Shown: positions 2,353 through 61,097 of the stretch, in pieces
Position numbering within the stretch: position 1 is the stretch's first letter
Layout of the letters: every line of letters begins with the position of its first letter
NCBI GenBank assembly: GCA_938002965.1
Contig: CALKZY010000006.1
Coordinates: forward strand, 129,057-193,056
From: an uncultured Acidimicrobiales bacterium
Lineage (GTDB): Bacteria; Actinomycetota; Acidimicrobiia; Acidimicrobiales; SZUA-35
Length of the DNA: 64,000 nt
Direction: 5' to 3'
The notes under the pieces: model-generated
The model's input: the letters and a program-made list of their open reading frames with translations, nothing else
Told to the model about the DNA's origin: nothing
Database searches by the model: none
Made by a program: the position numbers and the translations under genes

Positions 2353-2358
2353 CAACCT

Positions 2359-2402
2359 ACATTCTACACAACTTGACGCAATGAACAATAAGTGTAGAAT
2401 GT
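2359..2402. promoter_or_regulatory. Perfect 11-bp inverted repeat (ACATTCTACAC N22 GTGTAGAATGT) carrying two outward-facing TAGAAT -10 boxes; candidate PaaX operator and divergent promoters
   Basis: Arms lie at 2359-2369 and 2392-2402. On the plus strand, TTGACG (2373-2378), a 16 nt spacer and TAGAAT (2395-2400) face boxC. The mirror TAGAAT on the minus strand (2366-2361) ends 8 nt before the paaX ATG. Confidence 0.5.
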
Positions 2403-2441
2403 CGGTAGACGCTCACAAGCTTAGGATTGCTCGGGTTTGCC

Positions 2442-4133: not shown

Positions 4134-4178
4134 GGCCAACTGTTTGGCCATCGGCCAAACGTTCCCAAGGAGACCAAC

Positions 4179-5606: not shown

Positions 5607-5624
5607 GTCGTCCATACTGGCTCG

Positions 5625-6422: not shown

Positions 6423-6435
6423 CAGAGCCAGCGCC

Positions 6436-7629: not shown

Positions 7630-7664
7630 CTGGCACGGCAAAATTGAGACACGGAGCGGCAGCT

Positions 7665-8702: not shown

Positions 8703-8718
8703 ATCTGGGGGGGGAAGC

Positions 8719-9456
8719 GTGCCGGACCTGATCATTGATATACACCGATCCGACCAGCGGTTCGACACCTCAATCGGATGGCTTGACTCCAAGCACAGTT
8801 TCAGCTTCGGTCGCCACTATGACCCCGACAACACCAGCCATGGGCTTCTGATTGTTTCTAACGACGACTCCGTGGCACCAGGAGGCGGATTTCAGCCGCA
8901 CTCCCACCGGGACATGGAAATCGTCACGTGGGTTCTCGAAGGCAAGCTCGAGCACCGCGATTCTGAGGGCAATCATGGTGTTCTCTACCCTGGACTGGCT
9001 CAACGTATGAGTGCGGGCAGCGGTATTACACACTCCGAACTGAACCACTCCCAGACCGACCCCGTCCACTTCATTCAGATGTGGGTCCCACCAGATACAT
9101 CAGGGGTACAACCGTCCTACGAGCAGCGAGACGTCAACGAAGCTTTGACCGGCGGGGACCTTGTCACCGTAGCTTCGGGTACCGGTGACACAGACACCAT
9201 TCACATCCACCAAGCAGGAGCATCCATGGCGGTGGCCCGGATGAAAGTCGGCCAATCGGTAGCGTTGCCCAACAGCCCGTTTGTCCACGTCTTTATGGCT
9301 CGTGGCTCGGCGATGCTCGACAGCCAATCAGGTAGCGAGACGTTGGCCGTAGGCGACGCGGCGAGAATACGCCATGCTGAGTCGCTCAGCGTGACCGCTC
9401 ATAGCTCGTCGGTCGAAATCATCGTGTGGGAGAGCAGCGCCTCGGCCGACCGCTAG
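8719..9456 (+). CDS. Pirin-family (bicupin) protein
   Basis: Pirin N-terminal motifs (GWLDSKHSFSFG, GFQPHSHRDMEIVTWVLEG.LEHRDS.GN). The GTG at 8719 is preceded by GGGGGGGAAGC, and the upstream part of the ORF overlaps the previous gene. Confidence 0.8.
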   Translation: MPDLIIDIHRSDQRFDTSIGWLDSKHSFSFGRHYDPDNTSHGLLIVSNDDSVAPGGGFQPHSHRDMEIVTWVLEGKLEHRDSEGNHGVLYPGLAQRMSAGSGITHSELNHSQTDPVHFIQMWVPPDTSGVQPSYEQRDVNEALTGGDLVTVASGTGDTDTIHIHQAGASMAVARMKVGQSVALPNSPFVHVFMARGSAMLDSQSGSETLAVGDAARIRHAESLSVTAHSSSVEIIVWESSASADR

Positions 9457-9477: not shown

Positions 9478-10266
9478 CTATGACGTCTCAATCTCTACGT
9501 CTTCGGTAGTTTCCAGGCTCGGGCCGCCGCCTAGAAGGTCGGGGAGATTGGACACAATCAGGGCCAAGGCCAAGGCAGCGATGATCACCTGTGCGGGCAG
9601 CAGACTCACCGGACTTGAACCGCCGGGTTCAGCAATCAACTCCCGGCGACTTGCGCTGACCTCGGAGGCGAGCTCATCAAGATTGGCCGTTGAGCGGTCC
9701 AAGTCTGCAGCTACAGTCCGCAGGTCGGCCGCCAGCTCAACGGTGTTGGGACCCAGCTCAGCTGTCTCCGTCGACAGTCTGGTCAAGGACTCTTCGGCCG
9801 CCCGCAAGTCATCGACCAACGGATCGATGTCGGTTAGGGACGGATCGACTTGGGTGATGCGGGTGTCGAGAAACGGAATGTTGTCGAGAATCCCGTTGAT
9901 ATCGCTAATGCTGGCATCCAACTGCGCCAGGTTGTTGGACACTGCGGTGAGAACCGGTGGCAGCGTCGCCGTAACATCCGCTACATCACCGGCCACCTCG
10001 GACGTTGCATCCGACGTCGCAGCCACCGATTCCAGCGACACCGCTGATGCTTCGAGAGCAGCGGCGGTTGACGTCGCAACCTCGCTTGAGCTGGCCAGCG
10101 TGGCTTCCACCGACTCAAGTGCTCCGGCCACCGTTTCCACCGAGTCGTTTGCGCCGAACTCGACCGAGCCCAGCGCAATCCAACCGAACGCGGCGCAGAC
10201 AGCGGCAAGCAAAGATGAAACAAGCGCAAAGAAGCGCCGAGATGTCGCCACCGATTCAGAACCCAT
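9478..10266 (-). CDS. Hypothetical membrane protein, one TM at each end, Ala/Ser/Glu/Asp-rich helical ectodomain
   Basis: N-terminal TM (FFALVSSLLAAVCAAFGWIAL) and C-terminal TM (LLPAQVIIAALALALIVSNL). No recognisable family. The equally long antisense ORF is Ser/Arg-rich and was rejected. Confidence 0.5.
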   Translation of the reverse strand: MGSESVATSRRFFALVSSLLAAVCAAFGWIALGSVEFGANDSVETVAGALESVEATLASSSEVATSTAAALEASAVSLESVAATSDATSEVAGDVADVTATLPPVLTAVSNNLAQLDASISDINGILDNIPFLDTRITQVDPSLTDIDPLVDDLRAAEESLTRLSTETAELGPNTVELAADLRTVAADLDRSTANLDELASEVSASRRELIAEPGGSSPVSLLPAQVIIAALALALIVSNLPDLLGGGPSLETTEDVEIETS

Positions 10267-20900: not shown

Positions 20901-23447
20901 ATGACGAGCGACAATCTGGGCGAATTGGCAGATCGAATTCGGCATCTAGCCCGAGTTCCCAATCTCCTAGTTGCCTGTGACTACGACGGAGTTCTTGCAC
21001 CCCTGGTGGACGACCCAATGCAGGCGAGACCAAACCGCGATGGTGTGGCCGCTATGAGATCGTTGGCTGAGCAGGCCAATACCCATGTCACCGTCGTATC
21101 CGGGCGCAGCCTCCGAGACCTTGCCGGACTTTCCCGGTTGCCGGAGGAGATCCGCCTGGTTGGCAGTCACGGAAGCGAGTTCGACCTAGGGTTTGCATCT
21201 CAGCTAGACCCCCAGCAGGTCGAACATCGACGGATTGTCACAGAAGAAGTACGGGCGCTAGCGGACAAGTACGGCGCCCGGTCCGAGGAAAAGCCCACCG
21301 GCGTTACCTTCCACTTCAGAGAACTCGAGGAGGAGGCCAGCGACGCGGCCCGGATGGAGCTCGTGCGAGGCCCCGCCGGCCACGATTGGATTCACGTTCG
21401 GAATGGCCACGATGTGATGGAGTTCTCGGTAATCGAGACCTCCAAGGGCTCGGCGTTGAACATCATCCGCCAACAAGTTGGCGCCTCGGCCGTGATCTTC
21501 TTCGGCGATGATGTTACCGACGAGGACGGTTTCCGCACTCTAAGTGGGCCCGATATCGGGGTCAAAGTCGGCGACGGAGCCACCGCAGCGAGCTATCGGA
21601 TCGCAGGGCCGGACACGGTGGCCAAGATTCTGGCCCTTCTAGCCGAGATCCGAGCCAAGTGGCTTCGAGGCGAGGGCTTGGTCCCAATCGAAGATCACTC
21701 GATGCTGTCCGACCTGCGCACAGCTGCCATCGTCAGCCCGTCGGCTTCGATCTCGTGGCTTTGCGTGCCCAGGATCGACTCGGCGGCCATCTTCGCGTCA
21801 CTCCTGGGCGGAGAGTCAGCAGGCCACTTCACAGTCTCCGAGGGTGACGATCAGCGACCGCCTGAGTCCCAGGGCTATGCCGGTCAGACAATGATTCTTG
21901 AGTCCCGATTCTCCAGCTTCACCGTCACCGACTTTCTGGACAGCTCAAGTGGCCGGACCCGTAGGCTGGCCGGCCGTTCGGACCTGGTTCGGATCATCGA
22001 AGGAAGCGGACGGGCCCACATCGAATTCGCTCCCCGGCTCGACTTCGGTCGAGTTCCAACCCAACTCGAACTACGCGACGACGGAATTGTTGTCCAGGGA
22101 ACCGCCGATCTCATGGTTCTTCGGGCACCGGGCGTGAACTGGGAAATCAGCCAGGACGGGCAGCACCAAACCGCCATCGGGGTGTGCGACCTGACCGAAG
22201 GAGAACCGATCACGCTCGAACTTCGTAGCGGCACCGGCACGCTTCGCCCCGACGCCCGCTCAGAGCATGACCGCCTCAACGACACCGCCCACTACTGGTC
22301 TAACTGGGCCAGCAAGCTCGAACTACCCACGCTCAAGCGTGACCTGGTTAGCCGAAGTGCATTGGTTCTCAAGAGTCTCTGCCATGGGCCCACCGGCGCA
22401 ATTCTGGCGGCGGCGACCACCAGCTTGCCCGAGCATTTGGGTGGCGTTCGCAACTGGGATTATCGCTACTGCTGGTTGCGCGATGCGTCGCTCACCGCCA
22501 CGTCGCTCGTCAGGCTCGGGTCCAGGGCGGAAGCCATGGCTTTCCTTGACTGGGTGCTGCAGTTACTGGAAACCAGAACCGATCCGGAGCGTCTCGCTCC
22601 GCTCTACAACGTCACCGGTCGTCATCTGCCTCCCGAAGCGGAGATCGCTGTTCTTCCCGGCTACGGCGGAAGCAGGCCGGTGCGTGTGGGTAACGGCGCC
22701 GACGGTCAAGTCCAGCTTGACGTGTTCGGACCGGTGGTCGATCTGGTCCATGTTCTCCTTGAGCACGGCGAGGCTTTGTCGTCAGAGCACTGGCGTCTAG
22801 TCGAAGCCATGGTGCTGGCGGTGTCTCGCCGCTGGCACGAGCCGGACCACGGCATCTGGGAGATCCGCAAGCCTCCACGCCAACACGTGTACTCCAAGCT
22901 GATGGGTTGGGTGACCGTGGACAGGGCCATCGCCATCGCCGAGCAGTTTCTCGACCGTGAACCGACCGCGTGGGTGGAGCTACGAGATCGCATCGCAACC
23001 GACGTCTTGTCTAACGGTTGGAACGAGCAATTGAACACCTTCACCGCCGCATACGGCTCCAGCGACGTGGACGCTTCAGTGCTTGCCATCGGGCTCTGGG
23101 GTCTCATCGAGCCGACCGATCCACGATTCGTTTCGACTGTTGACGCTATCGAACGGGAGTTACGCGTCGGGCCGACTGTCTACCGGTATCTGGAGGATGA
23201 CGGGCTGCCGGGCAAGGAAGGCGGGTTCAACCTGATGACGTCCTGGCTGATTGACGCTCTTTGGTTGATTGGCCGTCGGGAGCAGGCAACCGAGTTGTTC
23301 GACGAGTATTGCGACCTGGTTGGTAAGACCGGAATTATGGCCGAGGAATTCGACCCGGAGAGCCAACGCGCTCTTGGCAACATTCCGCAGGCCTACTCAC
23401 ACCTCGGCCTCATCAGCAACGCTCTGAATCTCGAGCGACTTACCTAA
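20901..23447 (+). CDS. otsB: Fusion protein: trehalose-6-phosphate phosphatase (HAD, OtsB) N-terminal domain plus a glycoside hydrolase family 15 (glucoamylase/trehalase-like) C-terminal domain
   Basis: N-terminus: LLVACDYDGVLAP, VVSGRS, FFGDDVTDEDGF (the HAD motifs of OtsB). C-terminus: NWDYRYCWLRDASLT, IWE.R and AEEFD, typical of the GH15 catalytic domain. Confidence 0.85.
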   Translation: MTSDNLGELADRIRHLARVPNLLVACDYDGVLAPLVDDPMQARPNRDGVAAMRSLAEQANTHVTVVSGRSLRDLAGLSRLPEEIRLVGSHGSEFDLGFASQLDPQQVEHRRIVTEEVRALADKYGARSEEKPTGVTFHFRELEEEASDAARMELVRGPAGHDWIHVRNGHDVMEFSVIETSKGSALNIIRQQVGASAVIFFGDDVTDEDGFRTLSGPDIGVKVGDGATAASYRIAGPDTVAKILALLAEIRAKWLRGEGLVPIEDHSMLSDLRTAAIVSPSASISWLCVPRIDSAAIFASLLGGESAGHFTVSEGDDQRPPESQGYAGQTMILESRFSSFTVTDFLDSSSGRTRRLAGRSDLVRIIEGSGRAHIEFAPRLDFGRVPTQLELRDDGIVVQGTADLMVLRAPGVNWEISQDGQHQTAIGVCDLTEGEPITLELRSGTGTLRPDARSEHDRLNDTAHYWSNWASKLELPTLKRDLVSRSALVLKSLCHGPTGAILAAATTSLPEHLGGVRNWDYRYCWLRDASLTATSLVRLGSRAEAMAFLDWVLQLLETRTDPERLAPLYNVTGRHLPPEAEIAVLPGYGGSRPVRVGNGADGQVQLDVFGPVVDLVHVLLEHGEALSSEHWRLVEAMVLAVSRRWHEPDHGIWEIRKPPRQHVYSKLMGWVTVDRAIAIAEQFLDREPTAWVELRDRIATDVLSNGWNEQLNTFTAAYGSSDVDASVLAIGLWGLIEPTDPRFVSTVDAIERELRVGPTVYRYLEDDGLPGKEGGFNLMTSWLIDALWLIGRREQATELFDEYCDLVGKTGIMAEEFDPESQRALGNIPQAYSHLGLISNALNLERLT

Positions 23448-30665: not shown

Positions 30666-33176
30666 CTACAGCGCGGAGTCGCCGACGGTTGGCTGGCTTG
30701 AATCGTCCGTGAGATCCAGCGCAGTCTGGCCGGGTCGGCCAGTGGTGACATCGATGACTTCCAGCGGGAACGTCCCGGTCTCAACCAGTTCAGCGAACAC
30801 AAACCGTCCGTCCCCAGCGGGGGCGAGCCACACCACCATCGACTTGCGTTCGGGGCGTCGGACGCCCACAACCTTCCCTTTGTCGGTCACCAACTTCCGC
30901 TCCGGGTGGTCTACCGTCATCGACACCGATGGGCATCGGCCGTCGCGAACCAGCTCGACCCGCCTGACCAGCGGACGGTCACCGGCGACTCGCAGACCGG
31001 CATCGCGCATCCGCGCCTGCCGGAGCTTCAGCTCATCAAAAATCGGCGTTCCGTCAAGAGCGATCTCTTCTTCACGATGTGACTCTGGTTCGCTCTGAAT
31101 TCGAAAATCGGTGTCCACCAGTGCGGCGGCAACATCGGTCCATCGCGAACGGACATTGTGCTGCTCAAGGGAAGCCGATAGTGACGTTGACGGCCGATCA
31201 GGGTGAAGCGCCGATCTGAACGGTCGAACCAAGCGATGGAAGACAGCGCCTTGGCCGAGGAGAGCCGGACCAAGAATAACCATCCCGGCAAGGCCGACAA
31301 CAGTGAGAACCAGGGCCAATCCCGTGCCGAAGCGGCCGGTGCCTGTGCCTGAACCTGCTAAGGCAGCAAGCGCCATGAACACCGAGAACACCACCGAAGC
31401 TGCGCCAACGACCACCACGCCATCGCCGGGATCAACCTCGCTTCGCTGCCCGACAAAGCCGAGGGCCCAGAGTAGAAAGAGCAGATTCGATAACACCAGC
31501 ACCGACAGAAGCTCGCCTGCCGCGACCTGTCCTGCCGCGATCCGATAGAGACCAACCGAAGCCGATCCGAGAATCATCACCAGAACGACAACCGTCGCCG
31601 CGTATGGTCGGTCCTGGGAACGCAGGAACGTCACCAGACCCGACATCACAGCCAACAGCGCAAGCGTCACCAGCGTCAGACTTCCCGAGCCGCGACTAGT
31701 CAATTCAGCCAGCGCCGGGCTACTCACCGAGAGGCCGTCGAACGAACGCACATCATCCAGCAGTTCCGCGCCTTCCGTGCTGGCAAGCGACACCGAAGGC
31801 ACGATGATGGCCGAACGGCTGAGATCCTCGGGATCCCAACCTTGTCGGCCCAACACACTCGGCGACAGCAATGAAACACCGTCAACCGCCGGTTGAACGT
31901 CAGCCGCAATGTGCCTCATGGTCGCAGTGTCCACCCAGGCCACAGACGTCAACGGCACGACGGTGGCCGCGATGTCATCGATGGTGGCCGCTGACGACTC
32001 ATCCAAGGTAACGACCAAGCCCTCCGTTGGGTTGCCCGCACCAAGGTCGAACAGGTCATCTGCCACCCCGCCGTCAACATCGGCGAGGGCCAGCTGGCGA
32101 CTCGGTTGCCCGAAGGCAAAGACGGCAAGAAGAACGAGGAAGGCGACTGCAGCCAGAACTGCGCTCGGAGTCGCCGGCACCGTACGTAGGCCGTCAAGCA
32201 TGGCACGCACTGTCGGTACGGGGTTGCGTGGGCGCGTGAGGTGGGCCCCCAGAACACCGACGGTCAGCCCCGACGCCATCACAGAACCAGTTAGCACCAC
32301 AGCCACAAGCAAGCCGATGGCCACCGACCAGACCGGGTGTGAGATCAAACCAAAGACGGACAGGATCGAGCCGACAGCCAGCAGGCCAAGCCCGACCATA
32401 GCGATGTCGGTACAGCTTGAAACCACCGAACGTTGGATCATCTCGGCACCGTCTTCCCCATCCGGGGATCGGAACCAGATATACATCCGCCAGCAGACGA
32501 GACAAGCAGTGATCAACGCAGCCAAAGCGCTGACGACCTCAGTGGAGGCGATGGTGCCGTCGTAGGGTCCGTTGACCTGCCGGGCCACTGATGGCCCAAG
32601 CACTGTCGAGCCAGCCAGTGTGGCCATTGTCAACGCTCCGACCAACCAATGGACACGAAGGGCTGCGACGACACCGACGACCACTGCTAGGACCACTAGC
32701 AACATGACAGCTGGCTCGTAGGACGTTCGGAGACCTTCCTCGATCATCAAACGGCCGGAGACATCAACCGAGCCCAATTCGACATCTTCGAATCCGGCCA
32801 GCGTCGACTCGACGTCGCCGACAATCCGATCCAGTGACCGGCGCTGCACTGAGGCATCGTCGGTGCCGAGATAGAATGCGGTCAGGTCTCCTGCCAGCCA
32901 GTCAACCGAACTGGTGGTGACACCCGGAATGCTCTCAAGTTCATTTCGGGCCACAGCCAGCCACTCGTCTTCGACCGAGCTGGCCACGTTGACTGTGGCG
33001 ACCAGGTCCGGCACAACGTCACCAGCTGACTCCGAAATGTCGGGGTTCGGATCAACCGATCCGAACAAAAGGGCTCCCCAGCCCAGCAAGGTCACAATCA
33101 GAGCCGCGACAAGCGAAAGTTTTCCTGCGGACTGACCGGTAAACCACCCGCTGATCGATCGCCTCCAGGAAGACAT
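30666..33176 (-). CDS. MMPL/RND-superfamily-like integral membrane protein with an extra C-terminal soluble domain of about 190 aa
   Basis: Twofold architecture (TM, large extracytoplasmic loop, about 5 TM; repeated). The C-terminal 190 aa has no TM and no family I can name. Confidence 0.55.
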   Translation of the reverse strand: MSSWRRSISGWFTGQSAGKLSLVAALIVTLLGWGALLFGSVDPNPDISESAGDVVPDLVATVNVASSVEDEWLAVARNELESIPGVTTSSVDWLAGDLTAFYLGTDDASVQRRSLDRIVGDVESTLAGFEDVELGSVDVSGRLMIEEGLRTSYEPAVMLLVVLAVVVGVVAALRVHWLVGALTMATLAGSTVLGPSVARQVNGPYDGTIASTEVVSALAALITACLVCWRMYIWFRSPDGEDGAEMIQRSVVSSCTDIAMVGLGLLAVGSILSVFGLISHPVWSVAIGLLVAVVLTGSVMASGLTVGVLGAHLTRPRNPVPTVRAMLDGLRTVPATPSAVLAAVAFLVLLAVFAFGQPSRQLALADVDGGVADDLFDLGAGNPTEGLVVTLDESSAATIDDIAATVVPLTSVAWVDTATMRHIAADVQPAVDGVSLLSPSVLGRQGWDPEDLSRSAIIVPSVSLASTEGAELLDDVRSFDGLSVSSPALAELTSRGSGSLTLVTLALLAVMSGLVTFLRSQDRPYAATVVVLVMILGSASVGLYRIAAGQVAAGELLSVLVLSNLLFLLWALGFVGQRSEVDPGDGVVVVGAASVVFSVFMALAALAGSGTGTGRFGTGLALVLTVVGLAGMVILGPALLGQGAVFHRLVRPFRSALHPDRPSTSLSASLEQHNVRSRWTDVAAALVDTDFRIQSEPESHREEEIALDGTPIFDELKLRQARMRDAGLRVAGDRPLVRRVELVRDGRCPSVSMTVDHPERKLVTDKGKVVGVRRPERKSMVVWLAPAGDGRFVFAELVETGTFPLEVIDVTTGRPGQTALDLTDDSSQPTVGDSAL

Positions 33177-35368: not shown

Positions 35369-36760
35369 GTGTCAGCCGCTCCTCAACTCATCGTAGTTGC
35401 CAACCGTCTTCCCGTTCGGCGGGTCGAGCGTGACGATGGAACTAGCGAATGGGTCACCAGCCCAGGAGGCCTCGTTTCGGCGCTTTCGCCTGCGCTGGCA
35501 CAGTCCGACAACCCTTCGTGGGTGGGTTGGACCGGCGATCGGACGCATCAGGTTCAAGAACCGTTCGCCGTTGATGGCATCAACCTGATCCCTATTCCGG
35601 TGACTCCAGTTGAGTTGGACGCCCACTACAACGGCATGTCCAACGGCACTCTCTGGCCGCTCTACCACGACAAAGTCGGACCGGTTGAGTTCCACCGTAC
35701 GTGGTATGAGGGCTACCGGACCGTAAACAAGCGGTTTGCCGAGTCGGTGGCCAAGTCGGCGAAACCAGGGGCCGTGGTCTGGGTCCAGGACTACCAACTT
35801 CAGCTCGTCCCCGGTTATCTGAAGGAACTGCGCCCGGATCTCCAAATCGGCTTCTTCCTCCACATCCCGTTTCCCCCGGCCGAGCTGTTCAACCAGCTGC
35901 CGTGGCGAGACGCGCTCGTTTCGGGGATTCTCGGTAGCGACCTGGTCGGCTTCCAGACCCCAAGAAGTGCAGCCAACTTTCGACGAGTCGCCGAGTTCCT
36001 CGGCAAGGGCACGATTGACAACGACGACTTAATCGTCGATGGCCGACGTGTCCGACTGAGCTCCTATCCGATCGGAATCGACTTTCACCGATACGAAGCA
36101 GCCGGAGTCGACCACGCCACCTCAGAGCGCAGTCGGGATTTACGGGCCCAGCTTGGCAATCCCCGCACGGTGATACTGGGTGTCGATCGCCTCGACTACA
36201 CAAAGGGCATCGACGTCCGCCTTCGAGCCTTCAAGGAGCTATTGGCCGACGGCGTGCTCCACCCGTCTCAAGTCACCATGGTGCAGGTCGCAGACCCATC
36301 ACGCGACAACGTAGACGCCTACATTGATCTACGAGGTCGGGTCGAACGGCTGGTGGGGGAAATCAACGGTGACTACGGCCGTGTTGGTGTCCCGGTGGTT
36401 CACTACATTCACCAGACACAGAATTTTGATGCCCTTCTGGCGTTGTACCGCACCGCAGACATCATGTTGGTGACCCCGTTCGCCGACGGAATGAACCTCG
36501 TGGCCAAGGAGTATGTGGCCACCCGCTACGACGAGTCCGGGGCACTGGTGCTTTCCGAGTTCGCTGGTGCCGCCCATCAGCTGACCGAAGCCCTTACGGT
36601 CAACCCCTACGACGTCGACGGTCTAAAGTCAGCTATCGCCGAAGCCGTCAGAATGACACCTGAGGAACAGCGTCAGCGCATGCGCGACATGCGCAAAGAG
36701 GTCGAGGCCACCGACGTGAGAACCTGGGCCGCCGACTTCCTGGCCGATCTCCGCCCGTAA
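35369..36760 (+). CDS. otsA: Alpha,alpha-trehalose-phosphate synthase (GT20)
   Basis: LIVVANRLPV, WVGW, NGTLWPLYH, WVQDYQL, FLHIPFP, LGVDRLDYTKGI and DGMNLVAKEY, all classic OtsA blocks. GTG start. Confidence 0.9.
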   Translation: MSAAPQLIVVANRLPVRRVERDDGTSEWVTSPGGLVSALSPALAQSDNPSWVGWTGDRTHQVQEPFAVDGINLIPIPVTPVELDAHYNGMSNGTLWPLYHDKVGPVEFHRTWYEGYRTVNKRFAESVAKSAKPGAVVWVQDYQLQLVPGYLKELRPDLQIGFFLHIPFPPAELFNQLPWRDALVSGILGSDLVGFQTPRSAANFRRVAEFLGKGTIDNDDLIVDGRRVRLSSYPIGIDFHRYEAAGVDHATSERSRDLRAQLGNPRTVILGVDRLDYTKGIDVRLRAFKELLADGVLHPSQVTMVQVADPSRDNVDAYIDLRGRVERLVGEINGDYGRVGVPVVHYIHQTQNFDALLALYRTADIMLVTPFADGMNLVAKEYVATRYDESGALVLSEFAGAAHQLTEALTVNPYDVDGLKSAIAEAVRMTPEEQRQRMRDMRKEVEATDVRTWAADFLADLRP

Positions 36761-42586: not shown

Positions 42587-42956
42587 TCTGCCCAGAGCGC
42601 CAGGGCAGGCCTGCCCATTCGCAGCATCAAGTCGGACCATTACTATTCGGTGCAGCAAATCGGATCGCCCCCGTACCGCCTAGTCGCCCGCCCAACAGCG
42701 ATTCGACACCGAACGACCTAATTAGGAGCGGATACCTACTGATGCGCTCTTCGGCAACATGAATCAACCTTCATGGGTTTTTGTCTTGAATGGTCGACGC
42801 GGAGCTGATCCACGGCTACCTTGGTGGCCAGCGGGCGACAGGGGACACTGACAACCTGTAGCTGTGGAGAAAATCAAACGACGACCGCTGCAAGCTGTCC
42901 ATGAAGCTGATAGTTTCGGGCTGCGAGGTATGGGCGCAGCACCGGCGGAGGTAATT

Positions 42957-45410
42957 GTGAACACAAACGATGAAACGGCGGCGGGCGCACGAGTCCTCTC
43001 ATCGAGCGGATTTGAGCACCTTCAGCTGTCTGACGGCGATTCATCGGTCAAGGTGACCATTGGTTCGATTGACCGTTGGGACCGTTCGCATCTGCGACGT
43101 CTCCGTCAGTCCGCAGACCTTCCGGGTCTTGTCCCCGTAATCGATAGCGATCTTTCCAGCGACGACAAGCCTTTCGCCGTCACCCCGCAGGTCAATCATC
43201 CCAGTCTCGCCGATCGCATTCCGCCCGAAGCCGCTCAGTGGCCTGAGTGTGCCGCCATCGTTGAGGCTTCCGCCCGTGCGCTACACGAGGCCCATCTACG
43301 TGGCCTCTTCCACGGCAGCCTCTCCCCCAACCAGATCTACGTCATCAACGAGGACATCGCTGTCGAAGGCGTCGGACTCGGCCTTGGCGGTGTCGTTCAG
43401 GCTGACTATCAGCACTGGGCCGCTCCTGAGGTCCTCGACGGCGCCGACGCTACCGAGCGTTCGGATGTCTATTCGCTCGGCAAGATCCTTGAGTCAGCGC
43501 TTGGCAACAACATCGAGGACGTACCCCGTTCGGTGCGGCGTCTTATCATGTGGTCCAGCTCGGACACACCTGAGGCCCGACCACCGTCGGCACTCGAATT
43601 CGCCAGCATTCTGGCAGAAGCGCTCGGCGACGAACGCCGAATCTACTCGCCTGCCTTCATTCCAACCGCTGACGTCAACGCCTTGGCGGCAACCGCTTCG
43701 GCCGAAGTCGCAGCTCATGAGCTCGCCGATCCCGGCACCTCATCAACCAGTGCCGGCGTAGCCACAGCTGCTGTAGCGGCTGGAACTGGAGCAGTAGTCG
43801 CCGAAAAGTTCTTCGACGATGAACCGGAGATCGATGACCCCGCCGCCGGACTCGAGGTTGTCGATGAAGCCGACGCCGACCTCGACGTCGACGCGGACCT
43901 CGAAGAAATCGACCTTGACGCAGACGATGAGATCGACTCATTCGACGACGAGATCGCAGAAGACGACGCAACCATCGACGTCGAAAAAGAAGCCGTCATC
44001 ACTGACGAGATTCCCGAAATGGAAATCGGCAACGAGGCGGCGACCACTACCGAGATCGAAGGCGAAGCAGCCGCCACCTCCGGTGAAACGTCCTCAGGAT
44101 TCGACTCTCGGGACTACACCGCGGCCACTACGACCGCTGACAACTACGAAGTCCCAGCCGCACAGACGGTAGAAATCGTCAGCCCACAGGAACCAAGCAA
44201 GCGCTCCAACAGAGCCGGAATTCTGGTTGGCGTAATCGCCGCTCTCGGATTGGCTCTGATCTTCTGGCAGCTGTTCAACGGGGATTCCGGCGATGAGACC
44301 GAGGTCGCCGCCAACCCCGCAGCGGAAGAGGCAGTGGAAGCCGAAGAAGACGCTGAAGCTTCGGTCTCCTCCGAAGACAGCACCCCCGAGGCGCCAACCG
44401 CCACCGATGACGAGGCAGAAGCCGCTGCAGCCGAAGAAGCAGCTGCGGCTGAAGAAGAAGCCGCTGCAGCTGAAGCCGCCGAAGAAGCAGCTGCGGCTGA
44501 AGAAGAAGCCGCTGCAGCTGAAGTCGCCGAAGCTGAGGAAGCATCCGAGACTGAAGAAGCAGCCGAAGAAGCATCAGAGACTGAAGAAGAAGCAGCCGAG
44601 GAAGAGTCCACCGATGAACCGGCGGAACCCGCTGAGGCAGCCGCATCGCTGCTTGACGGCCCAATCCCCGCTGACGAGGCGGGGGTTCAAATCGTCCACG
44701 GGATTCCCGGAGCCACGGTTGACGTCTACGTCGACGGCCAGGCACTTGCTCCCGGCTTCGCCCCAGGCACAATCGCTGGTCCGGTCGACCTCGCACCTGG
44801 AAACTACGAGGTAGAGATCTTTGCAGTCTCCGACGTTGCACCGGCTGCCAGTGCGGATCGCGATGACCAAGCCCTGCTGTCGCAGACCATCGCAGTAGGC
44901 GACAGTGCCGCATCGCTCTACGCCCACCTAGGTGAACAGGGTGCTCCCGCACTAAGCGCCTTTGGCGAGGACTTCACCACGCTGGCACCAGGCCAAGGAA
45001 GAGCCGTCGCCCGACACCTGGCGGCTGCTCCGGAGGTCTCCCTCCTGGTTGACGGCGAACCTGTTGGCACCTTGGCCAACGGCGACGCCTTTGGCGCTGA
45101 CCTGGATGCAGGTGCTCACGACTTTGCTGTGCTGGCCGGAGACACCGAAGTCTTGGCCGCCACGCTCGACATCGCCGATGGCGAAGTGGTTGTGGTCTCG
45201 GTGACGGGCTCAGTCGCCGACGGAACGCTCGCTCCGGTCGTACAGCGATACAGCGGACTAAGCTCCGCTCCCACCGAGGTACCGACTGGCAACAGCAACC
45301 TGCTGGGCATGGACGAGGACATGACGAATCTCTACATCGTCGGTGTCGTAACTCTGGCGATGGCGCTCGGTGGCTTGGTGATAATAAGTCGCCGCCGTCG
45401 ACTTCTGTGA
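42957..45410 (+). CDS. Membrane protein: degenerate Ser/Thr-kinase-like (pseudokinase) domain, acidic linker, TM, E/A-rich stalk, DUF4397-like domain, C-terminal TM plus Arg tail
   Basis: Kinase C-lobe remnants AAPEVL and SDVYSLGKIL are present. HRDLKPxN is replaced by FHGSLSPNQ, and no G-loop, VAIK or DFG is visible. The TM is AGILVGVIAALGLALIFWQLF. The DUF4397-like block reads VQIVHGIPGATVDVYVDG...APGNYEVEIF. GTG 42957 follows GGAGG; the ORF track starts at 42864. Confidence 0.7.
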   Translation: MNTNDETAAGARVLSSSGFEHLQLSDGDSSVKVTIGSIDRWDRSHLRRLRQSADLPGLVPVIDSDLSSDDKPFAVTPQVNHPSLADRIPPEAAQWPECAAIVEASARALHEAHLRGLFHGSLSPNQIYVINEDIAVEGVGLGLGGVVQADYQHWAAPEVLDGADATERSDVYSLGKILESALGNNIEDVPRSVRRLIMWSSSDTPEARPPSALEFASILAEALGDERRIYSPAFIPTADVNALAATASAEVAAHELADPGTSSTSAGVATAAVAAGTGAVVAEKFFDDEPEIDDPAAGLEVVDEADADLDVDADLEEIDLDADDEIDSFDDEIAEDDATIDVEKEAVITDEIPEMEIGNEAATTTEIEGEAAATSGETSSGFDSRDYTAATTTADNYEVPAAQTVEIVSPQEPSKRSNRAGILVGVIAALGLALIFWQLFNGDSGDETEVAANPAAEEAVEAEEDAEASVSSEDSTPEAPTATDDEAEAAAAEEAAAAEEEAAAAEAAEEAAAAEEEAAAAEVAEAEEASETEEAAEEASETEEEAAEEESTDEPAEPAEAAASLLDGPIPADEAGVQIVHGIPGATVDVYVDGQALAPGFAPGTIAGPVDLAPGNYEVEIFAVSDVAPAASADRDDQALLSQTIAVGDSAASLYAHLGEQGAPALSAFGEDFTTLAPGQGRAVARHLAAAPEVSLLVDGEPVGTLANGDAFGADLDAGAHDFAVLAGDTEVLAATLDIADGEVVVVSVTGSVADGTLAPVVQRYSGLSSAPTEVPTGNSNLLGMDEDMTNLYIVGVVTLAMALGGLVIISRRRRLL
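44431..44600 (+). repeat. In-frame tandem repeats in the E/A-rich stalk (48-bp unit x2, then a ~30-bp unit x2)
   Basis: The 45-nt string CCGAAGAAGCAGCTGCGGCTGAAGAAGAAGCCGCTGCAGCTGAAG occurs at 44431-44475 and again at 44479-44523. GAAGCATC(C/A)GAGACTGAAGAA..GCAGCC is repeated at about 44538-44597. Confidence 0.9.
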
Positions 45411-46078
45411 ACTCACGGGTTCGCTCCGGAGTCCTCGTACTAGCAATCTCTCTTTGCCTGATGGGCGCTGCCACGTCAAGTGGTGGCGCCATCGGCGCGT
45501 CCATCAGTGACACCATCTCGTCTAGGTCCTTACCAGACAACCTGGTCAACCTGGTTGATGAGTTGGCCTCGCCACAGGTTCCGCTGCGGAGCGGCAATTT
45601 GGCCGACCAGCCAGAGCCTGAGAGCGGCCCCTCTCCCGTAGCCGTTCGAATTGGCGACATCGCGCTCGAGGCCCCCGTCATTCCGGTGGGGGTCGACAGC
45701 GAAAATCAGTTCGCTGTACCGGCGGCGGAACAGGTCGGTTGGTATAGGTTCGGTCCCCGTCCCGGGACCGAAGGTTCAGCGGTACTAGCCGCTCACGTCG
45801 ACTACGGAGGCAAACCGGGAGCGTTCTTCAACCTGGCCGAGCTGCGGGTCGGTGACCCAATCGAGGTCGAGCTCAGTGATGGTTCCGTCCTGCGCTACCG
45901 GGTGACAGGAAATACCGAGTACGACAAGACAGATCTGCCATTCGAGGACGTCTTCCGCAAAGAAGGTTCTGAAGTCCTGCAGCTCATCACCTGTGGCGGC
46001 ACGTTTGATCCAAACGCTCGGTCCTATGAGGCCAACATTGTGGTTACCGCACTCCCCGAGGCGCTCGTCGAGTTCTAG
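45407..46078 (+). CDS. Sortase-family transpeptidase (class F-like)
   Basis: N-terminal TM anchor, catalytic His region (AVLAAHVDY), LQLITCGG (TLxTC-type Cys) and a conserved Arg near the C-terminus. Its GTG overlaps the stop of the upstream gene (GTGA 45407-45410). Confidence 0.8.
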   Translation: MNSRVRSGVLVLAISLCLMGAATSSGGAIGASISDTISSRSLPDNLVNLVDELASPQVPLRSGNLADQPEPESGPSPVAVRIGDIALEAPVIPVGVDSENQFAVPAAEQVGWYRFGPRPGTEGSAVLAAHVDYGGKPGAFFNLAELRVGDPIEVELSDGSVLRYRVTGNTEYDKTDLPFEDVFRKEGSEVLQLITCGGTFDPNARSYEANIVVTALPEALVEF

Positions 46079-56235: not shown

Positions 56236-56793
56236 TCAATCCATAAGGTCAAGGAGGGCGGGTAGAACCAGCTGCAATGAGTCCGGGCACACCGGTCGAC
56301 CATTTACCCAGCCAGCGATTTCGCCGAGAGGAACCTCGTCCACGGCTACGACTTCCCCGTCGAGGCAGGCAACGTCAGCCTGACTTCGGGCCAAGAAGAT
56401 CCGCCCGAAGGAGTGATTGTCGGCATCCTGGTACTGTCCATCAGCCAGCAGCGAGAGCTCCGCCTCGACTCCGGCCTCCTCCTTCAACTCCCGTTTCGCC
56501 GACTCGTACCAGTCCTCGCCAGCGCTACAAACCCCGCCAAAGGCGATATCCCAGTAGCCGGGGTAAACGTCCTTCCACAGCGCCCGCTGGTGGACGACGA
56601 CGAGGTCATCACTGTGAAGTCGGCCGGTCCCGCCAGGCCCGGACGCCGGTTTCTGAACAGCACGCACCAACGCTACATAGGTGGCCCGATGAGGGAGCTG
56701 CTCGGCCCGCATACGACTCCTGGATGCTCTTCCAACGACACGACCGTCCTCGTCGAGGACGTCGATCAACTCGTCGCCACCGCCGAGCGGCAT
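56236..56793 (-). CDS. NUDIX hydrolase
   Basis: Nudix box GGVCSAGEDWYESAKRELKEEAGVE. The ATG at 56793 overlaps the stop of the upstream reductase gene (ATGA). Confidence 0.8.
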   Translation of the reverse strand: MPLGGGDELIDVLDEDGRVVGRASRSRMRAEQLPHRATYVALVRAVQKPASGPGGTGRLHSDDLVVVHQRALWKDVYPGYWDIAFGGVCSAGEDWYESAKRELKEEAGVEAELSLLADGQYQDADNHSFGRIFLARSQADVACLDGEVVAVDEVPLGEIAGWVNGRPVCPDSLQLVLPALLDLMD

Positions 56794-58061
56794 CACGACG
56801 TGGTGGGGGTCAGCCGCTCTAACGCCTCGGCGCGGTTTGTGCCGGCTGCTACCAGCTGGCGGCCGATGATGGCCTGCCTCGGCCTGTTCCAGGCAAGAAC
56901 ACCGCACAAGTGGGTGTCGTCGTCGAAGAAGGCCCTGACAAAGCGGTCATCATCGGGAGAACCAACGGTGTCGTGCCAATCGGGGGACACAACACCGGCC
57001 AATTGAATCTTCCGATCAAACTGGTCGCTCCAGAACCACGGGACCGGCTGGTAGGGCTCGTCAGGTTGCGTGCCCTGCATCGCTGCCACCAGGCTCCGAC
57101 CGGCGTACTGACCCATCTCCACCGCGTTGTCCCATTGCTCAACCCGCATCATTCGGCCACCAAACAATCTGTTGGGCCATGAAGCGACGTCACCGGCGGC
57201 GACGATGGCTTCGCCCGCCCGGCAGAACTGATCAACCACCACGCCAGAGCCCGGACCACTACCGAGATCCAAACCTGAGCCTTCGAGCCAGCCGGTCTCC
57301 GGCAAGGCACCAATGCCAACCACGAGCACATCGGCTTGCAGTCGCCGAGCCGAAGAGAGAACAACTGATGAGACACCGCCGCCGGACGTTTCGACCACAT
57401 CGATGGCCTCCCCCATCAGCATCGTGACGCCCTGCTGCTCGAAGAACCGGCACAAAGCGTGTCCGATGGAGACGTCCAGGACTCGGCTGAGTGGTGCTGC
57501 GGCCACGTCGACGACCGTAACGTCGAGCCCCATCTGGTGAGCGCTGGCGGCAACCTCGGCACCAATGAAACCGGCGCCGCACACAACGACGCTCTTTGGT
57601 TCTCCAACCAGCAAGTCACGCAGGCGTCGAGCGTCATCGAGAGTGCGGAGAGTTACCACTCCCCCTGGAGACGGGTCTCGGTTATCTAGGCCATCGACCG
57701 ACGTGACGGTGACGGCGGAGGGCAAGCTTCTCGCCGACGCACCACTGGCGATGACCAGTCCGTCAAAGGCCAACAGCGACCCATCGCTCAACTCAATCGA
57801 GCGAGCATCGACATCAAGACTCAGGGCGTCAACATCAATGCGCCAGGTCGCCTCCAGGCGATCTTCAGCCGCTGCTGGGAGTGGCAAGCGCGCCTCATCT
57901 CCGCCGCCGGTGAGGAACTCTTTTGACAACGGAGGCCGATCGTAGGGCCGGTGAGGCTCGCGACCAATGATCACTAGCTCCTGATCGAATCCGCTCTTTC
58001 GAATGGCGGCCGCCGCATGAGTACCGGCAAGCGAGGCGCCCACGACAACAATCGTCTTCAT
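56793..58061 (-). CDS. FAD-dependent ferredoxin-NAD(P)+ reductase (putidaredoxin/rhodocoxin reductase-like)
   Basis: VVVGASLAG, PYDRPPLSK, VCGAGFIGAEVA and the GD..S motif. I prefer the ATG at 58061 (MKTIVVVG). Confidence 0.85.
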   Translation of the reverse strand: MKTIVVVGASLAGTHAAAAIRKSGFDQELVIIGREPHRPYDRPPLSKEFLTGGGDEARLPLPAAAEDRLEATWRIDVDALSLDVDARSIELSDGSLLAFDGLVIASGASARSLPSAVTVTSVDGLDNRDPSPGGVVTLRTLDDARRLRDLLVGEPKSVVVCGAGFIGAEVAASAHQMGLDVTVVDVAAAPLSRVLDVSIGHALCRFFEQQGVTMLMGEAIDVVETSGGGVSSVVLSSARRLQADVLVVGIGALPETGWLEGSGLDLGSGPGSGVVVDQFCRAGEAIVAAGDVASWPNRLFGGRMMRVEQWDNAVEMGQYAGRSLVAAMQGTQPDEPYQPVPWFWSDQFDRKIQLAGVVSPDWHDTVGSPDDDRFVRAFFDDDTHLCGVLAWNRPRQAIIGRQLVAAGTNRAEALERLTPTTS

Positions 58062-58106
58062 GTGCAGCCCATGGTGAAACGCTGCACAGGCCATATGAGC
58101 CCGGTG

Positions 58107-58301
58107 CTAAGCCTCTTCAAGCTTGATTGCCTGCTTCGGGCAGCGCTCAGCGGCTTCCTTGACCTTCTCCTGCAACTCAGCGCCGGGATTTTCGTTGAGG
58201 ACGTAGAGAAAATCGTCATCTCGGACCTCGAAGACCTCAGGGGCGATGGCCATGCACACGGCATTGCTCTCACACAGGTCAAAGTCGACAACTACCTTCA
58301 T
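58107..58301 (-). CDS. Small [3Fe-4S]-type ferredoxin
   Basis: 64 aa with a CESNAVC...CP cluster motif. The ATG at 58301 is preceded by GGAG. Confidence 0.8.
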   Translation of the reverse strand: MKVVVDFDLCESNAVCMAIAPEVFEVRDDDFLYVLNENPGAELQEKVKEAAERCPKQAIKLEEA

Positions 58302-58478
58302 GGCTGCTCCTATCTCGCTGAGCCACACCGACAAACGACGACGGACGGAACAACCGACCCGACTTCGACCGACCCAGCGCCGATCGATGTAGACCTACAG
58401 ACTCTACTCCACACCATCGCTGCACCGGCAACGACGACTCCAGCCCAATCCTGCACAACCGCTTTGCCCGCTGCCGCG

Positions 58479-59204
58479 CTACAGATCGGCAGCCATATCA
58501 AAAGCCTCGCCCGGTAGGCCGAACCAGGAGCCGAGCAACTCTCCGTCGCCATCAAGCAGCGCTGCTCGAGGTTGACCGGAGACCTGGTAGAACTGCCAGG
58601 TCTCGAATGACTGATCCCAGACCATCAGGGGCGTGTTCAGCTCGTGGCGTTGCTGAAAAGTCTGCGCCAAGTCGAGTGAGTCCTGCGTTCCAAGCCCGAT
58701 TACCTGCACGGTGTCTTCGTATTGCTGAGCGAACTGCTCAACAGCCGGTGCCTCGGCGTTGCAAGCCGGTCAATGCGGAGCAAAGAACCACAACAACGTT
58801 GCCTTACCTGAGTCGGCCAACGCGTCGGCGACGTTCAGCGACTGCCCCGAGGCAATCTCGACCACTTCAACATCGGGAAAGACCGACCGTGGCGGACCGG
58901 TCGGTGTCGCAGTCTCCTCATCCGCTTCCGGCTCATCTGACACCGAGTCGTCTGAGGACTGGCCAGCGTCCGCATCGGCATCAGCATAAGCATCGGTAGT
59001 AGCGTCCTCACCATCGACTTCGGCCTCCTTCGCCGTCTCAGCGACTTCCGACGCCGTCGCTTCCGGTGCCTCATCGGTGTCGGCCTCATCAGCCTCGGCC
59101 TGCTCCCCGCTTTCAGAGGAAGTCACCTGGCTCTCATCGGCTGCCTCACCAGTGCAGGCGGCCACGATCAATGACATGGCGGCAACAGCAAGTAGGGCCC
59201 GCAT
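58479..59204 (-). CDS. TlpA/ResA-like thioredoxin-fold lipoprotein interrupted by one in-frame TGA (58770-58772) at the first redox Cys position: candidate selenoprotein (UPAC) or very recent pseudogene
   Basis: ORFs 58770-59309 and 58479-58709 are in the same frame. The joined translation reads ...KATLLWFFAPH-TGA-PACNAEAPAVEQFAQQYEDTVQVIGLG...VSGQPRAALLDGDGELL, that is WxxxxCxxC with the cis-Pro block. The N-terminus has a lipoprotein signal MRALLAVAAMSLIVAAC. Confidence 0.6.
58723..58743 (-). other. Candidate bacterial SECIS-like hairpin downstream of the in-frame TGA
   Basis: The mRNA UGUUGAGC-AGUUC-GCUCAGCA forms an 8-bp stem (one G.U pair) with a 5-nt loop containing GU. The stem starts 26 nt after the UGA. 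Confidence 0.3.
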
Positions 59205-59444
59205 CCATTCAGCACTCCGATCCGGCCGGCGGCTCGGTCGATCGGGATTAGGCAAGGCGCTCCCACCGGGAGCGCGCCAAGACACATTGCGACGGTCAGT
59301 CATGAACATTCAAACCAGCGTCGACCGCGGCCAATTCCGCCGTCGACGGGAAAGTTTTGTGTTTTGTTCGCACAAGTCCGTGGCCCGGACGGTTGGAGTC
59401 AAGCAAACTTAAAAGCAGGATTGCAGGCAGAGGGCAAAACTCAG

Positions 59445-61097
59445 ATGATTGAATCGCCAACCGACGAACAACCAGCAAAGGCCGAGCCGGAAACCAACAC
59501 TGCTGACGCGGCCGAAACAGCCGACACGGTTGGCTCGTCGTCGACAGTGCTTGCCGCTCTAAGTGGTATCGCTTCCGGCGCGGTGGCTCTCGGTGTCGGC
59601 GAGTTGGTAGGTGCTATTCGAGCGCCCGAACCGGGGCCCGTCATCGCAGTAGCCAATCGGGTAATCGACCTGGCCCCCAATTGGTTTGTCGAGTTGGGTA
59701 AGTCGATCTTTGGATTGGCGGACAAGCCGGCTCTGATTGTCGGGACGATCCTGCTGTCCATCGTCTTTGCCTCCGTGCTCGGTGTTGTCTCGATTGCCCG
59801 ACCAAAGCCGGCCGTTCTCGGTTTGTGTGCGTTTGGCCTGCTGGGTGCCTTCGCAATCGCCGCCGACGCACAAGGCTCGGTGTTCGGCGCCGTGGTTACC
59901 GGCGGAGCCGCCACCATTGTCGGCGTCACTGCCCTCCTCTCGCTCCGACGACGCCTGCCAAGCTCTCTCGACCAGACAGCCATCAAGACTGAGATCGAAA
60001 GTCCGACGAATCCCAACGTTGATCGTCGCTCATTTCTTACTTGGGCCGGAGGAATAGGGGCCACAGCAGCGGGCGCAGCTGTTGTCGGGAACTCCGTCCG
60101 GTCCCGGTCATCAGTTCAAGAAGCCCGAACTTCGGTTGCCCTTGAGCCCGAGATCGACGACGAAGTTCAAGGTTGGCTTGATGCCGCCGTCGACGCAGAC
60201 CTCGGCATAGGCGACGAACTGACGCCACTGGTGATCGATGACGGCGAGTTCTATCTGATCGATACTGCACTGGTGAAACCCCAAGTGGACCCGACTACCT
60301 GGTCTCTTCGCATCAGCGGCATGGTCGATAACCCCATCGAGATCGGCTACGACGACTTGTTGGGGCGCTCGACCACGGTTGCCCCCGTCACGTTGTCGTG
60401 CGTCTCCAATGAAGTCGGCGGTGGCCTTGTTGGCAACGCCGTCTGGCAAGGGGTGCCGCTGGTCGACCTGCTCGAGGAGGCCGGAGTTCAGCCCGGCGCT
60501 ACTCAGGTGGCCAGTCGGTCCATTGATGGATGGACCTGTGGCTTCCCGACCGAGGCTGTTTTTGATGGCCGAACGGCGCTCGTTGCCGTATCCATGAACG
60601 GTGAACCACTTCCAGTCCGCCACGGCTTCCCCGCTCGTCTGGTCGTGTCGGGTCTGTACGGGTACGTCTCGGCCACCAAGTGGCTTACCGACATCGAGCT
60701 GACGACCATTGAAGGCTTCGACGGCTACTGGATTCCCCGAGGGTGGTCAAAGCTCGGTCCGGTCAAGACGCAGTCCAGAATTGACACTCCGCGTCGTCGG
60801 GAGACGCTGGTCGCTGGCCAGCCCACCGCGATCGCTGGAGTCGCCTGGGCGCCAGATCGAGGTGTTTCAAAAGTCGAAGTGAACATCGACGATGAGTGGG
60901 TCGAAGCCACCCTTAGCAACGAGTTGGGTACCGATGCCTGGCGACAGTGGATGGTGTCGTGGACACCTACTCCCGGCGACCACGTCCTGGCGGTTCGAGC
61001 CACCGACGGTGACGGCGACACACAGACCGCCGACCTCGCCCCGCCTGCACCAAGCGGTGCGACCGGGTGGCACACAATTGTGGTCCGAGCCGAGTAA
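59445..61097 (+). CDS. Membrane-anchored molybdopterin-dependent oxidoreductase (sulfite oxidase / MsrP-YedY family)
   Basis: N-terminal multi-TM region, a Tat-like RRSFLTWAGG, then SCVSNEVGGG..GNAVWQGVPL..LL, NGEPLP..HGFP.RLVVSGLYG and a C-terminal Ig-like dimerisation domain. Confidence 0.8.
   Translation: MIESPTDEQPAKAEPETNTADAAETADTVGSSSTVLAALSGIASGAVALGVGELVGAIRAPEPGPVIAVANRVIDLAPNWFVELGKSIFGLADKPALIVGTILLSIVFASVLGVVSIARPKPAVLGLCAFGLLGAFAIAADAQGSVFGAVVTGGAATIVGVTALLSLRRRLPSSLDQTAIKTEIESPTNPNVDRRSFLTWAGGIGATAAGAAVVGNSVRSRSSVQEARTSVALEPEIDDEVQGWLDAAVDADLGIGDELTPLVIDDGEFYLIDTALVKPQVDPTTWSLRISGMVDNPIEIGYDDLLGRSTTVAPVTLSCVSNEVGGGLVGNAVWQGVPLVDLLEEAGVQPGATQVASRSIDGWTCGFPTEAVFDGRTALVAVSMNGEPLPVRHGFPARLVVSGLYGYVSATKWLTDIELTTIEGFDGYWIPRGWSKLGPVKTQSRIDTPRRRETLVAGQPTAIAGVAWAPDRGVSKVEVNIDDEWVEATLSNELGTDAWRQWMVSWTPTPGDHVLAVRATDGDGDTQTADLAPPAPSGATGWHTIVVRAE

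Follow-up and report, generated by a model that had tools for sequence, protein, structure and literature searches.

We report that a gene on the minus strand of a 64,000 nucleotide (nt) stretch of DNA from an uncultured Acidimicrobiales bacterium (GTDB lineage SZUA-35; assembly GCA_938002965.1, contig CALKZY010000006.1, positions 129,057 to 193,056), hereafter the window, is very probably a functional selenoprotein gene in which an in-frame TGA serves as the codon for selenocysteine (Sec), and not a pseudogene. The predicted gene (58479..59204, minus strand; window coordinates throughout) comprises 241 codons followed by TAG and starts with ATG at 59204. That the TGA encodes Sec was proposed in an initial annotation made from the DNA alone, and our data support it through a column in the family alignment that holds either TGA or a cysteine (Cys) codon, an RNA structure that is present in Sec forms only, and a constrained reading frame downstream of the TGA.

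In the open reading frame (ORF) map the gene appears as two minus-strand ORFs, 58770..59309 (179 amino acids, aa) and 58479..58709 (76 aa), which lie in one frame (59309-58709 = 600). Translation of 58479-59204 gives 242 codons with a lone internal stop, ...LLWFFAPH-stop-PACNAEAPAVEQF...GQPRAALLDGDGELL...MAADL-stop, where the internal stop is the TGA at 58772-58770; 96 intact sense codons follow before the terminal TAG, with no further lesion. The initial annotation had described one frame divided by TGA alone and undamaged downstream, which the coordinates and the translation bear out in every detail, and its expectation that automated annotation would split the gene agrees with the public calls on the same contig, which list a 144-aa and a 76-aa product. 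ATG 59204, which has GGAG 10 nt upstream, is also the start of the gene caller's N-terminal fragment (P0002), and an ATG further upstream in the same frame (59309) is an alternative start.

Relatives were identified in several ways. A word-indexed search of 5.8 billion proteins returned fragments only; the N-terminal fragments all stop at ...LLWFFAPH, the C-terminal fragments begin directly past the stop (V/M-C-R-x-E-A-P...), and the cluster records yielded neither accessions nor names for the N-terminal fragments. Two relatives with 44% protein identity have WFWAPH-TGA-PVC and WFWAPH-TGA-PAC in their DNA, and TGA is kept at 45-59% protein identity (L003, L004 and others). Scanning GTDB genomes and JGI metagenomes added 160 further loci; overall, 165 related loci, the majority from metagenome-assembled genomes of Acidimicrobiia, hold 177 family copies. 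In these the column holds TGA (157), TGC (17) or TGT (3), consistent with the Sec/Cys interchange on which the initial annotation had relied, while the ratio of 157:20 is skewed towards Sec because EAPxVEQF, one of the peptides with which loci were sought, is itself the product of the RNA element that Sec forms carry. Expressed as distinct nucleotide contexts the numbers are 142 with TGA and 18 with Cys, a recurrence of TGA far above what chance would give. A dominance of Sec forms on the scale of 157:20 was therefore rejected, and an unbiased HMMER search (96 C-terminal residues against 1.84 billion cluster representatives) suggests approximately one to two Sec-type clusters per Cys-type cluster. 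Specifically, 233 clusters were found at E <= 1e-3, and among the best 150 of these about 82 consist of a C-terminal fragment only, as a stop at the column would produce, and at least 41 are full-length with CPxC-type motifs.

The GTDB matches are mostly metagenome-assembled genomes of Acidimicrobiales / Acidimicrobiia, including Ilumatobacteraceae, Ca. Poriferisocius and the Sva0996 group, and the GTDB species that have the family, most of them Acidimicrobiia, number at least about 77; the Cys-type GTDB matches number three and belong to Paraconexibacter and Solirubrobacterales. Complete chromosomes with the TGA form are OZ242355.1, OZ242341.1, OZ242356.1, NZ_OZ241836.1, OX638350.1 and NZ_OZ244791.1. 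A rough neighbour-joining tree requires at least five Sec/Cys switches. Moreover, invariant residues are found on both sides of the UGA, the reading frame is conserved across it, and the codon-position diversity downstream of the UGA (0.26/0.17/0.47) indicates purifying selection on the downstream frame.

The initial annotation had pointed to the region 3' of the TGA as the site of a possible RNA structure. Such a structure was found, and it is conserved: Sec forms have two adjacent hairpins directly 3' of the UGA, while Cys forms lack both. In the following, the U of UGA is nt 1, such that the window coordinate equals 58773 - n. Hairpin 2 (nt 30-50; 58723..58743, minus strand; UGUUGAGC-AGUUC-GCUCAGCA) is the proposed SelB-binding core of a selenocysteine insertion sequence (SECIS). 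In Sec forms nt 32-37 pair with nt 43-48 around the loop AGUUY, and in 133 distinct sequences 97.4% of these positions are paired compared to 22-40% in controls with the 3' arm shifted by 1-3 nt. Compensatory changes are present at pair 33/47 (CG in 112, UA in 20) and pair 34/46 (GC in 132, CG in one), whereas at four of the six positions no more than 0-11% of the Cys-form sequences are paired. The third-position synonymous diversity in Sec forms is 0.25, 0.08, 0.00 and 0.03 for the stem codons, compared to 0.52 for the loop codon and 0.4-0.7 in the flanks, and this collapse at stem codons 10-14 is restricted to Sec forms, with no drop in Cys forms. For alanine (Ala) in the 3' arm, 140 of the 142 Sec forms have the codon GCU, while GCU accounts for 19% of the Ala codons in the window genes; Cys forms use GCC, GCG, GCA and GCT at the same codon. 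The frozen GCU reflects selection acting on the RNA rather than the protein.

A published model for bacterial SECIS elements (bSECIS) specifies an upper stem of 4-16 bp, an apical loop of 3-9 nt with G within its first two positions, a distance of 16-37 nt from UGA to loop, and a minimum free energy of <= -7.5 kcal/mol (PMC13188914). Hairpin 2 of the window fits every one of these constraints, with a 5-nt loop (AGUUC, with G at position 2 followed by U), an 8-bp stem, a spacing of 34 nt and an energy of -10.5 kcal/mol (z = -4.36; 0 of 200 shuffled sequences were as stable). Hairpin 1 (nt 16-29; 58744..58757, minus strand; GCCG-AGGCAC-CGGC, 4 bp) is a likely accessory helix. Across Sec forms it spans roughly nt 13-31, is GC-rich and differs in register between subfamilies; the mean energy of the region is -12.1 kcal/mol in Sec forms vs -6.7 for shuffled sequences, and -4.5 vs -4.6 in Cys forms. 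Covariation is seen at pair 15/29 (CG 56, UA 18, GC 10) and pair 17/27 (GC 75, CG 20). RNAalifold, applied to the 133 sequences, recovered only four hairpin 2 pairs, at low energy, and explicit pair counting was more informative. On the basis of these conservation and stability data we take hairpin 2 to be the putative SelB-binding core and hairpin 1 to be a probable accessory helix.

Other explanations for the internal TGA were weighed against these data. TGA and TGC are one base apart and the window is from a metagenome-assembled contig, which speak for a sequencing or assembly error, an alternative raised already in the initial annotation; however, the ENA/NCBI assembly (ERZ6863860) and an independent Logan assembly of run ERR9287625 (L002) agree on TGA, and relatives have TGA at the same column in over 100 assemblies that are independent of one another. 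A nonsense mutation (TGC to TGA) in a Cys-type DsbE-like gene that is now decaying would fit with gene callers giving two products and with the lack of visible Sec machinery in the window and its flanks, but not with the same TGA in 142 distinct contexts from many species, nor with 96 lesion-free downstream codons that show the pattern of purifying selection, nor with a hairpin specific to Sec forms that has compensatory changes and frozen synonymous sites. The decay that the initial annotation had named as a possible objection is accordingly not seen: the downstream frame is under purifying selection and the RNA structure is conserved in relatives. Taken together, the conserved TGA, the constrained frame and the agreeing assemblies exclude both explanations for practical purposes, such that we consider a pseudogene highly improbable and an error in the sequence next to inconceivable.

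If the two ORFs instead gave two polypeptides, a 144-residue lipoprotein and a separately initiated C-terminal piece, the in-frame GTG at 58709, which opens the 76-codon ORF, could serve as the second start, and such fragments are listed in the databases. The starts of the database fragments vary, though, which points to gene-caller artefacts; the split would also separate strand beta1 of the thioredoxin fold from the active-site helix, leave the C-terminal piece without a signal peptide, and leave the hairpins specific to Sec forms unexplained. We give this alternative as little credence as the pseudogene. Slightly less improbable, and still improbable, is read-through of the UGA by something other than Sec, be it near-cognate suppression, a lineage-wide reassignment (to Trp, Cys or Gly) or stimulation by structure, given that no sel gene is present in the window or flanks and that RNA structure 3' of stop codons can also stimulate ordinary read-through. 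On the other hand, TGA is the stop of 17 other large ORFs in the window (49 large ORFs examined), at the expected ends, which rules out a general reassignment of UGA; the column alternates with Cys only, in the classic Sec/Cys pairing; the hairpin fits the bSECIS model, including the loop G-U and the spacing; and a non-redox residue at the position of the nucleophile would kill a CxxC enzyme.

Some observations weigh against a Sec-encoding gene, or against parts of the mechanism proposed below. No tRNA-Sec was predicted by ARAGORN in the window or in 106 loci, and tblastn with the E. coli SelD and SelA sequences (queries validated at 620 and 632 bits, respectively) gave no match in the window or in any related locus. 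Likewise, Pfam scans identified no sel genes among approximately 40 window ORFs or in the 10-kb flanks on either side, and selA, selB, selD and tRNA-Sec were all absent from the approximately 2 Mb of related loci. Hairpin 1 of the window is weak (-6.6 kcal/mol, z = -1.3) and fails the bSECIS energy criterion, and no Rfam family matched the RNA element in the window at gathering scores. (In a permissive Rfam scan of 58600-58900, gut-2 was obtained at E = 3.6, and was dismissed as a chance match.) No CcdA-like gene is present in the window, and cues to the direction of catalysis are in conflict, since the M. tuberculosis homologues are reported to be oxidants in vitro (PMC3853704) while adjacency to CcdA in relatives suggests a reductive pathway.

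The genes for the Sec machinery need not be linked to a selenoprotein gene. In Actinomarina, which belongs to Actinomarinales, another order of Acidimicrobiia, selA, selB, selC and selD have been reported from all 84 complete genomes (bioRxiv 10.64898/2026.04.03.716425). This 2026 preprint is the only report on Sec in Acidimicrobiia in the searchable literature, which contains no paper that connects Acidimicrobiales, DsbE, DsbF or MPT53 to selenocysteine.

The protein encoded by the gene was analysed with Sec replaced by Cys. Within residues 109-223, and thus across the TGA, it matches the Pfam domains AhpC-TSA (PF00578; 41.4 bits, cut-off 26), Redoxin (PF08534; 35.7 bits, cut-off 26.6) and Thioredoxin_8 (PF13905; 35.8 bits, cut-off 27). 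Of the proteins with a solved structure, M. tuberculosis MPT53/DsbE (1LU4; E = 1.3e-11) and DsbF (3IOS; E = 1.4e-11) match it best. These matches place a thioredoxin-fold (TlpA/ResA/DsbE-like) domain at residues 105-241 (58482..58892, minus strand), in line with the fold assigned in the initial annotation. Its placement of the TGA at the nucleophilic Cys of CxxC also agrees with the alignment, where the U column falls on the first Cys of WCPFC / WCPTC in DsbE/DsbF: the redox motif is U-P-A-C (58761..58772, minus strand), with Sec145 at 58770-58772 and the resolving Cys148 at 58761-58763. By alignment to 1LU4/3IOS, the protein has a CxxC-type site after strand beta1 (W-x-x-x-x-C-x-x-C) and the conserved proline loop. 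Within this loop, Pro212 of the invariant Q-P (58569..58571, minus strand) is a candidate for the cis-proline that faces the active site; Q108/P109 are invariant in alignment A1 and align with WQP / QQP of DsbE/DsbF. The NCBIfam equivalogs ResA, TlpA, StoA, CcmG/DsbE and MauD all score far below their curated cut-offs (the best, ResA, 39.3 bits vs a cut-off of 170; TlpA, 18 vs 230), and the protein is thus not an equivalog of any of the named enzymes. No curated subfamily model covers it and its membership is by similarity only; on that basis it is a DsbE/DsbF-like member of the TlpA/ResA superfamily.

The N-terminus, MRALLAVAAMSLIVAAC, resembles a lipoprotein signal, with a predicted signal peptide and lipobox (MRALLAVAAMSLIVAA-C; 59154..59204, minus strand) in which the lipidated Cys would be residue 17. 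It is followed by a low-complexity linker rich in D, E, A and T (residues 18-104; 58893..59153, minus strand) without Pfam match, and both features are as given in the initial annotation. A lipobox-like motif, typically L-A-A-C-G, is kept in 134 of the 163 homologues with a complete 5' end, and the distance from the lipobox Cys to U varies greatly among relatives (50-130 residues). The conserved lipoprotein signal indicates that the protein acts outside the cytoplasmic membrane, and an extracytoplasmic location is predicted on this ground.

Our data suggest that the gene product is a thiol-disulfide oxidoreductase, an activity predicted from sequence, that is held outside the cytoplasm by a lipoprotein anchor. 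It would belong to the actinobacterial DsbE/DsbF (MPT53) branch and have Sec in place of the attacking Cys of CxxC (U-P-A-C). In the mechanism that we propose, SelB together with Sec-tRNA(Sec) would recognise hairpin 2, the AGUUY loop of which starts 34 nt past the UGA, leading to insertion of Sec, and the GC-rich hairpin 1 would act as an accessory or spacer helix. The precursor would pass through the Sec translocon in unfolded form and receive its lipid at Cys17, with the acidic linker as tether. The selenolate of U145 would then attack disulfides or thiols of the substrate to give a selenenylsulfide, which would be resolved by Cys148, and recycling might depend on a membrane electron carrier of CcdA type, as encoded next to the gene in 18 related loci but not in the window.

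With respect to variation within the family, two tandem paralogues approximately 600 nt apart, both with TGA, are present in many genomes, e.g. those of Ca. Poriferisocius and relatives (loci L033 (9508, 10118), L018, L043, L044, L055, L064, L066-L071, L079, L083, L100, L145 and L150); the upstream copy has the variant peptide EAPGLDQLARDN and a hairpin 2 with a C-C mismatch at pair 36/44. Some Sec forms (L003:10001-10672 and L004:10001-10690; P0003, P0008, P0009) are extended at the C-terminus by about 130 residues that include a conserved RFCRYA motif and have no Pfam match; the window protein has no such extension. In L003 the intergenic region upstream of the family gene (9590-9720) carries a decayed relic of another copy, with TGA followed 33 nt later by the hairpin UCGAGCAGUUUGCUCGA, encoding ...IEQFARQ..., and then stops. 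A few full-length Cys forms (P0031, P0043 and P0132) retain the SECIS-encoding peptide EAPxVEQFARQ and may be recent Sec-to-Cys conversions with a relic hairpin. Typical Acidimicrobiia-type Sec forms are also found on contigs labelled Acidobacteriota (L029, L031) and Phenylobacterium (L041), which are probably mis-binned. Searches for other selenoprotein genes, based on in-frame TGA pairs in the window and on TGA, hairpin and nearby Cys in all loci, gave off-frame noise only.

The neighbourhoods of the family gene are not strongly conserved. A CcdA-like membrane protein (DsbD_TM) is the immediate neighbour in 18 loci, all with Sec forms. In the window the gene is flanked by a divergently oriented gene for a membrane-anchored molybdopterin oxidoreductase of 577 aa (59364..61097, plus strand; Oxidored_molyb and Big_7, with an N-terminal membrane region). 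In 11 loci, the window included, the gene right beside the Sec gene encodes a membrane-anchored Oxidored_molyb protein, and a functional link between the two may exist. Genes for MoaA and MoaC lie a few kb past the molybdopterin oxidoreductase gene (L001). Directly downstream on the same strand are genes for a small 4Fe-4S ferredoxin (58107-58334) and a ferredoxin reductase (56793-58094; Pyr_redox_2 / Reductase_C), followed by a NUDIX hydrolase gene; in 19 loci a homologous ferredoxin reductase is encoded close to the family gene. Genes for cytochrome c maturation were not seen adjoining the family gene in the window.

Elsewhere in the window, 1489-9456 holds a phenylacetate-catabolism-like cluster (PaaX regulator, enoyl-CoA hydratase fusion, PaaA/PaaC-like protein, alpha/beta hydrolase, acyl-CoA dehydrogenase, NicX-like protein and pirin). 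An 848-aa fusion of a trehalose-phosphatase, a trehalase-like N-terminal domain and GH15 is encoded at 20901-23447 (plus strand), 12 kb from the gene for a GT20 trehalose-6-phosphate synthase (35369-36760, plus strand). At 42864-46078 (plus strand) the gene for an 848-aa DUF4397 protein is followed by a sortase gene overlapping it by 4 nt, and the two are likely a sortase-substrate pair. Finally, an 836-codon ORF (30666-33176, minus strand) has no Pfam match at E <= 1e-5, and its 3' end overlaps the 5' extension of a cystathionine-beta-synthase-like ORF (PALP and CBS).

The gene is mis-annotated wherever it was examined, here as a 144-aa 'hypothetical' protein with a separate C-terminal piece and in a similar manner in scores of related clusters. 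Reading it as one selenoprotein would correct the annotation in all of the GTDB species that have the family, and would imply that abundant aquatic and soil actinobacteria decode Sec. The family also offers a clean natural set of SECIS data, with matched Sec and Cys forms, for refining bacterial SECIS models, and the predicted protein would be a further example of a selenoprotein that leaves the cell by the general secretion pathway and is held by a lipid anchor on the outside of the cell membrane. A variable GC-rich helix kept by covariation, together with a 17-nt hairpin that is almost invariant across a class of Actinomycetota, may represent a SECIS class of its own. We put forward as a speculation, in all rather doubtful, that the Sec forms represent such a lineage-specific two-hairpin bSECIS class and at the same time are a main envelope thiol-disulfide catalyst in abundant aerobic marine and soil Acidimicrobiia; if so, the folding or repair of envelope proteins in these bacteria would be determined in part by selenium.

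Thioredoxin-fold selenoproteins with a UxxC motif have been catalogued since 2004-2008, with hundreds of copies in ocean metagenomes (PMC1794560, PMC2398784), and a 2026 review counts Trx/Prx-like UxxC selenoproteins among the high-confidence predictions. Like these, the window gene encodes a thioredoxin fold (PF00578/PF08534-type) with Sec for the first Cys of CxxC, and the window family shares with them many Cys homologues, a SECIS hairpin inside the coding region and abundance in marine metagenomes. On the fit of domain and motif, the window gene thus belongs to the already known UxxC class, the likeness to published representatives (e.g. WP_010940744.1) resting on these two features. The window subfamily differs from the known UxxC selenoproteins in belonging to the actinobacterial DsbE/DsbF branch, in its lipoprotein signal, in its concentration in Acidimicrobiia, and in a two-hairpin element where the second hairpin is nearly invariant.

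Among characterised proteins, M. tuberculosis DsbE (MPT53, Rv2878c; 1LU4) and DsbF (Rv1677; 3IOS) are about one third identical to the window protein over approximately 95 residues. All three are exported actinobacterial proteins with the common frame LWFW-x-P-x-[C/U]-P-x-C-x-x-EAP (N/Q after the second Cys) and the Q-P loop. For the two M. tuberculosis proteins, a partner in the membrane that resembles CcdA/DsbD has been proposed (PMC3853704). The M. tuberculosis proteins, however, have Cys and not Sec, Trp and not His before the active site, and no long acidic linker, and the activity reported in vitro is oxidative folding (PMC3853704). ResA, TlpA, StoA and CcmG(DsbE), which are fed by CcdA/DsbD, are, like the predicted window protein, CxxC proteins with a thioredoxin fold that are tethered to the membrane on its outer face; the likeness extends to weak NCBIfam matches to all of them and to CcdA-like genes being adjacent in some relatives. 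Specific to the selenoprotein family described here are the DsbE/DsbF branch, the lipoprotein anchor, the wide presence in Acidimicrobiia, often as tandem copies, and a clean two-hairpin element for which the Cys forms provide the controls.

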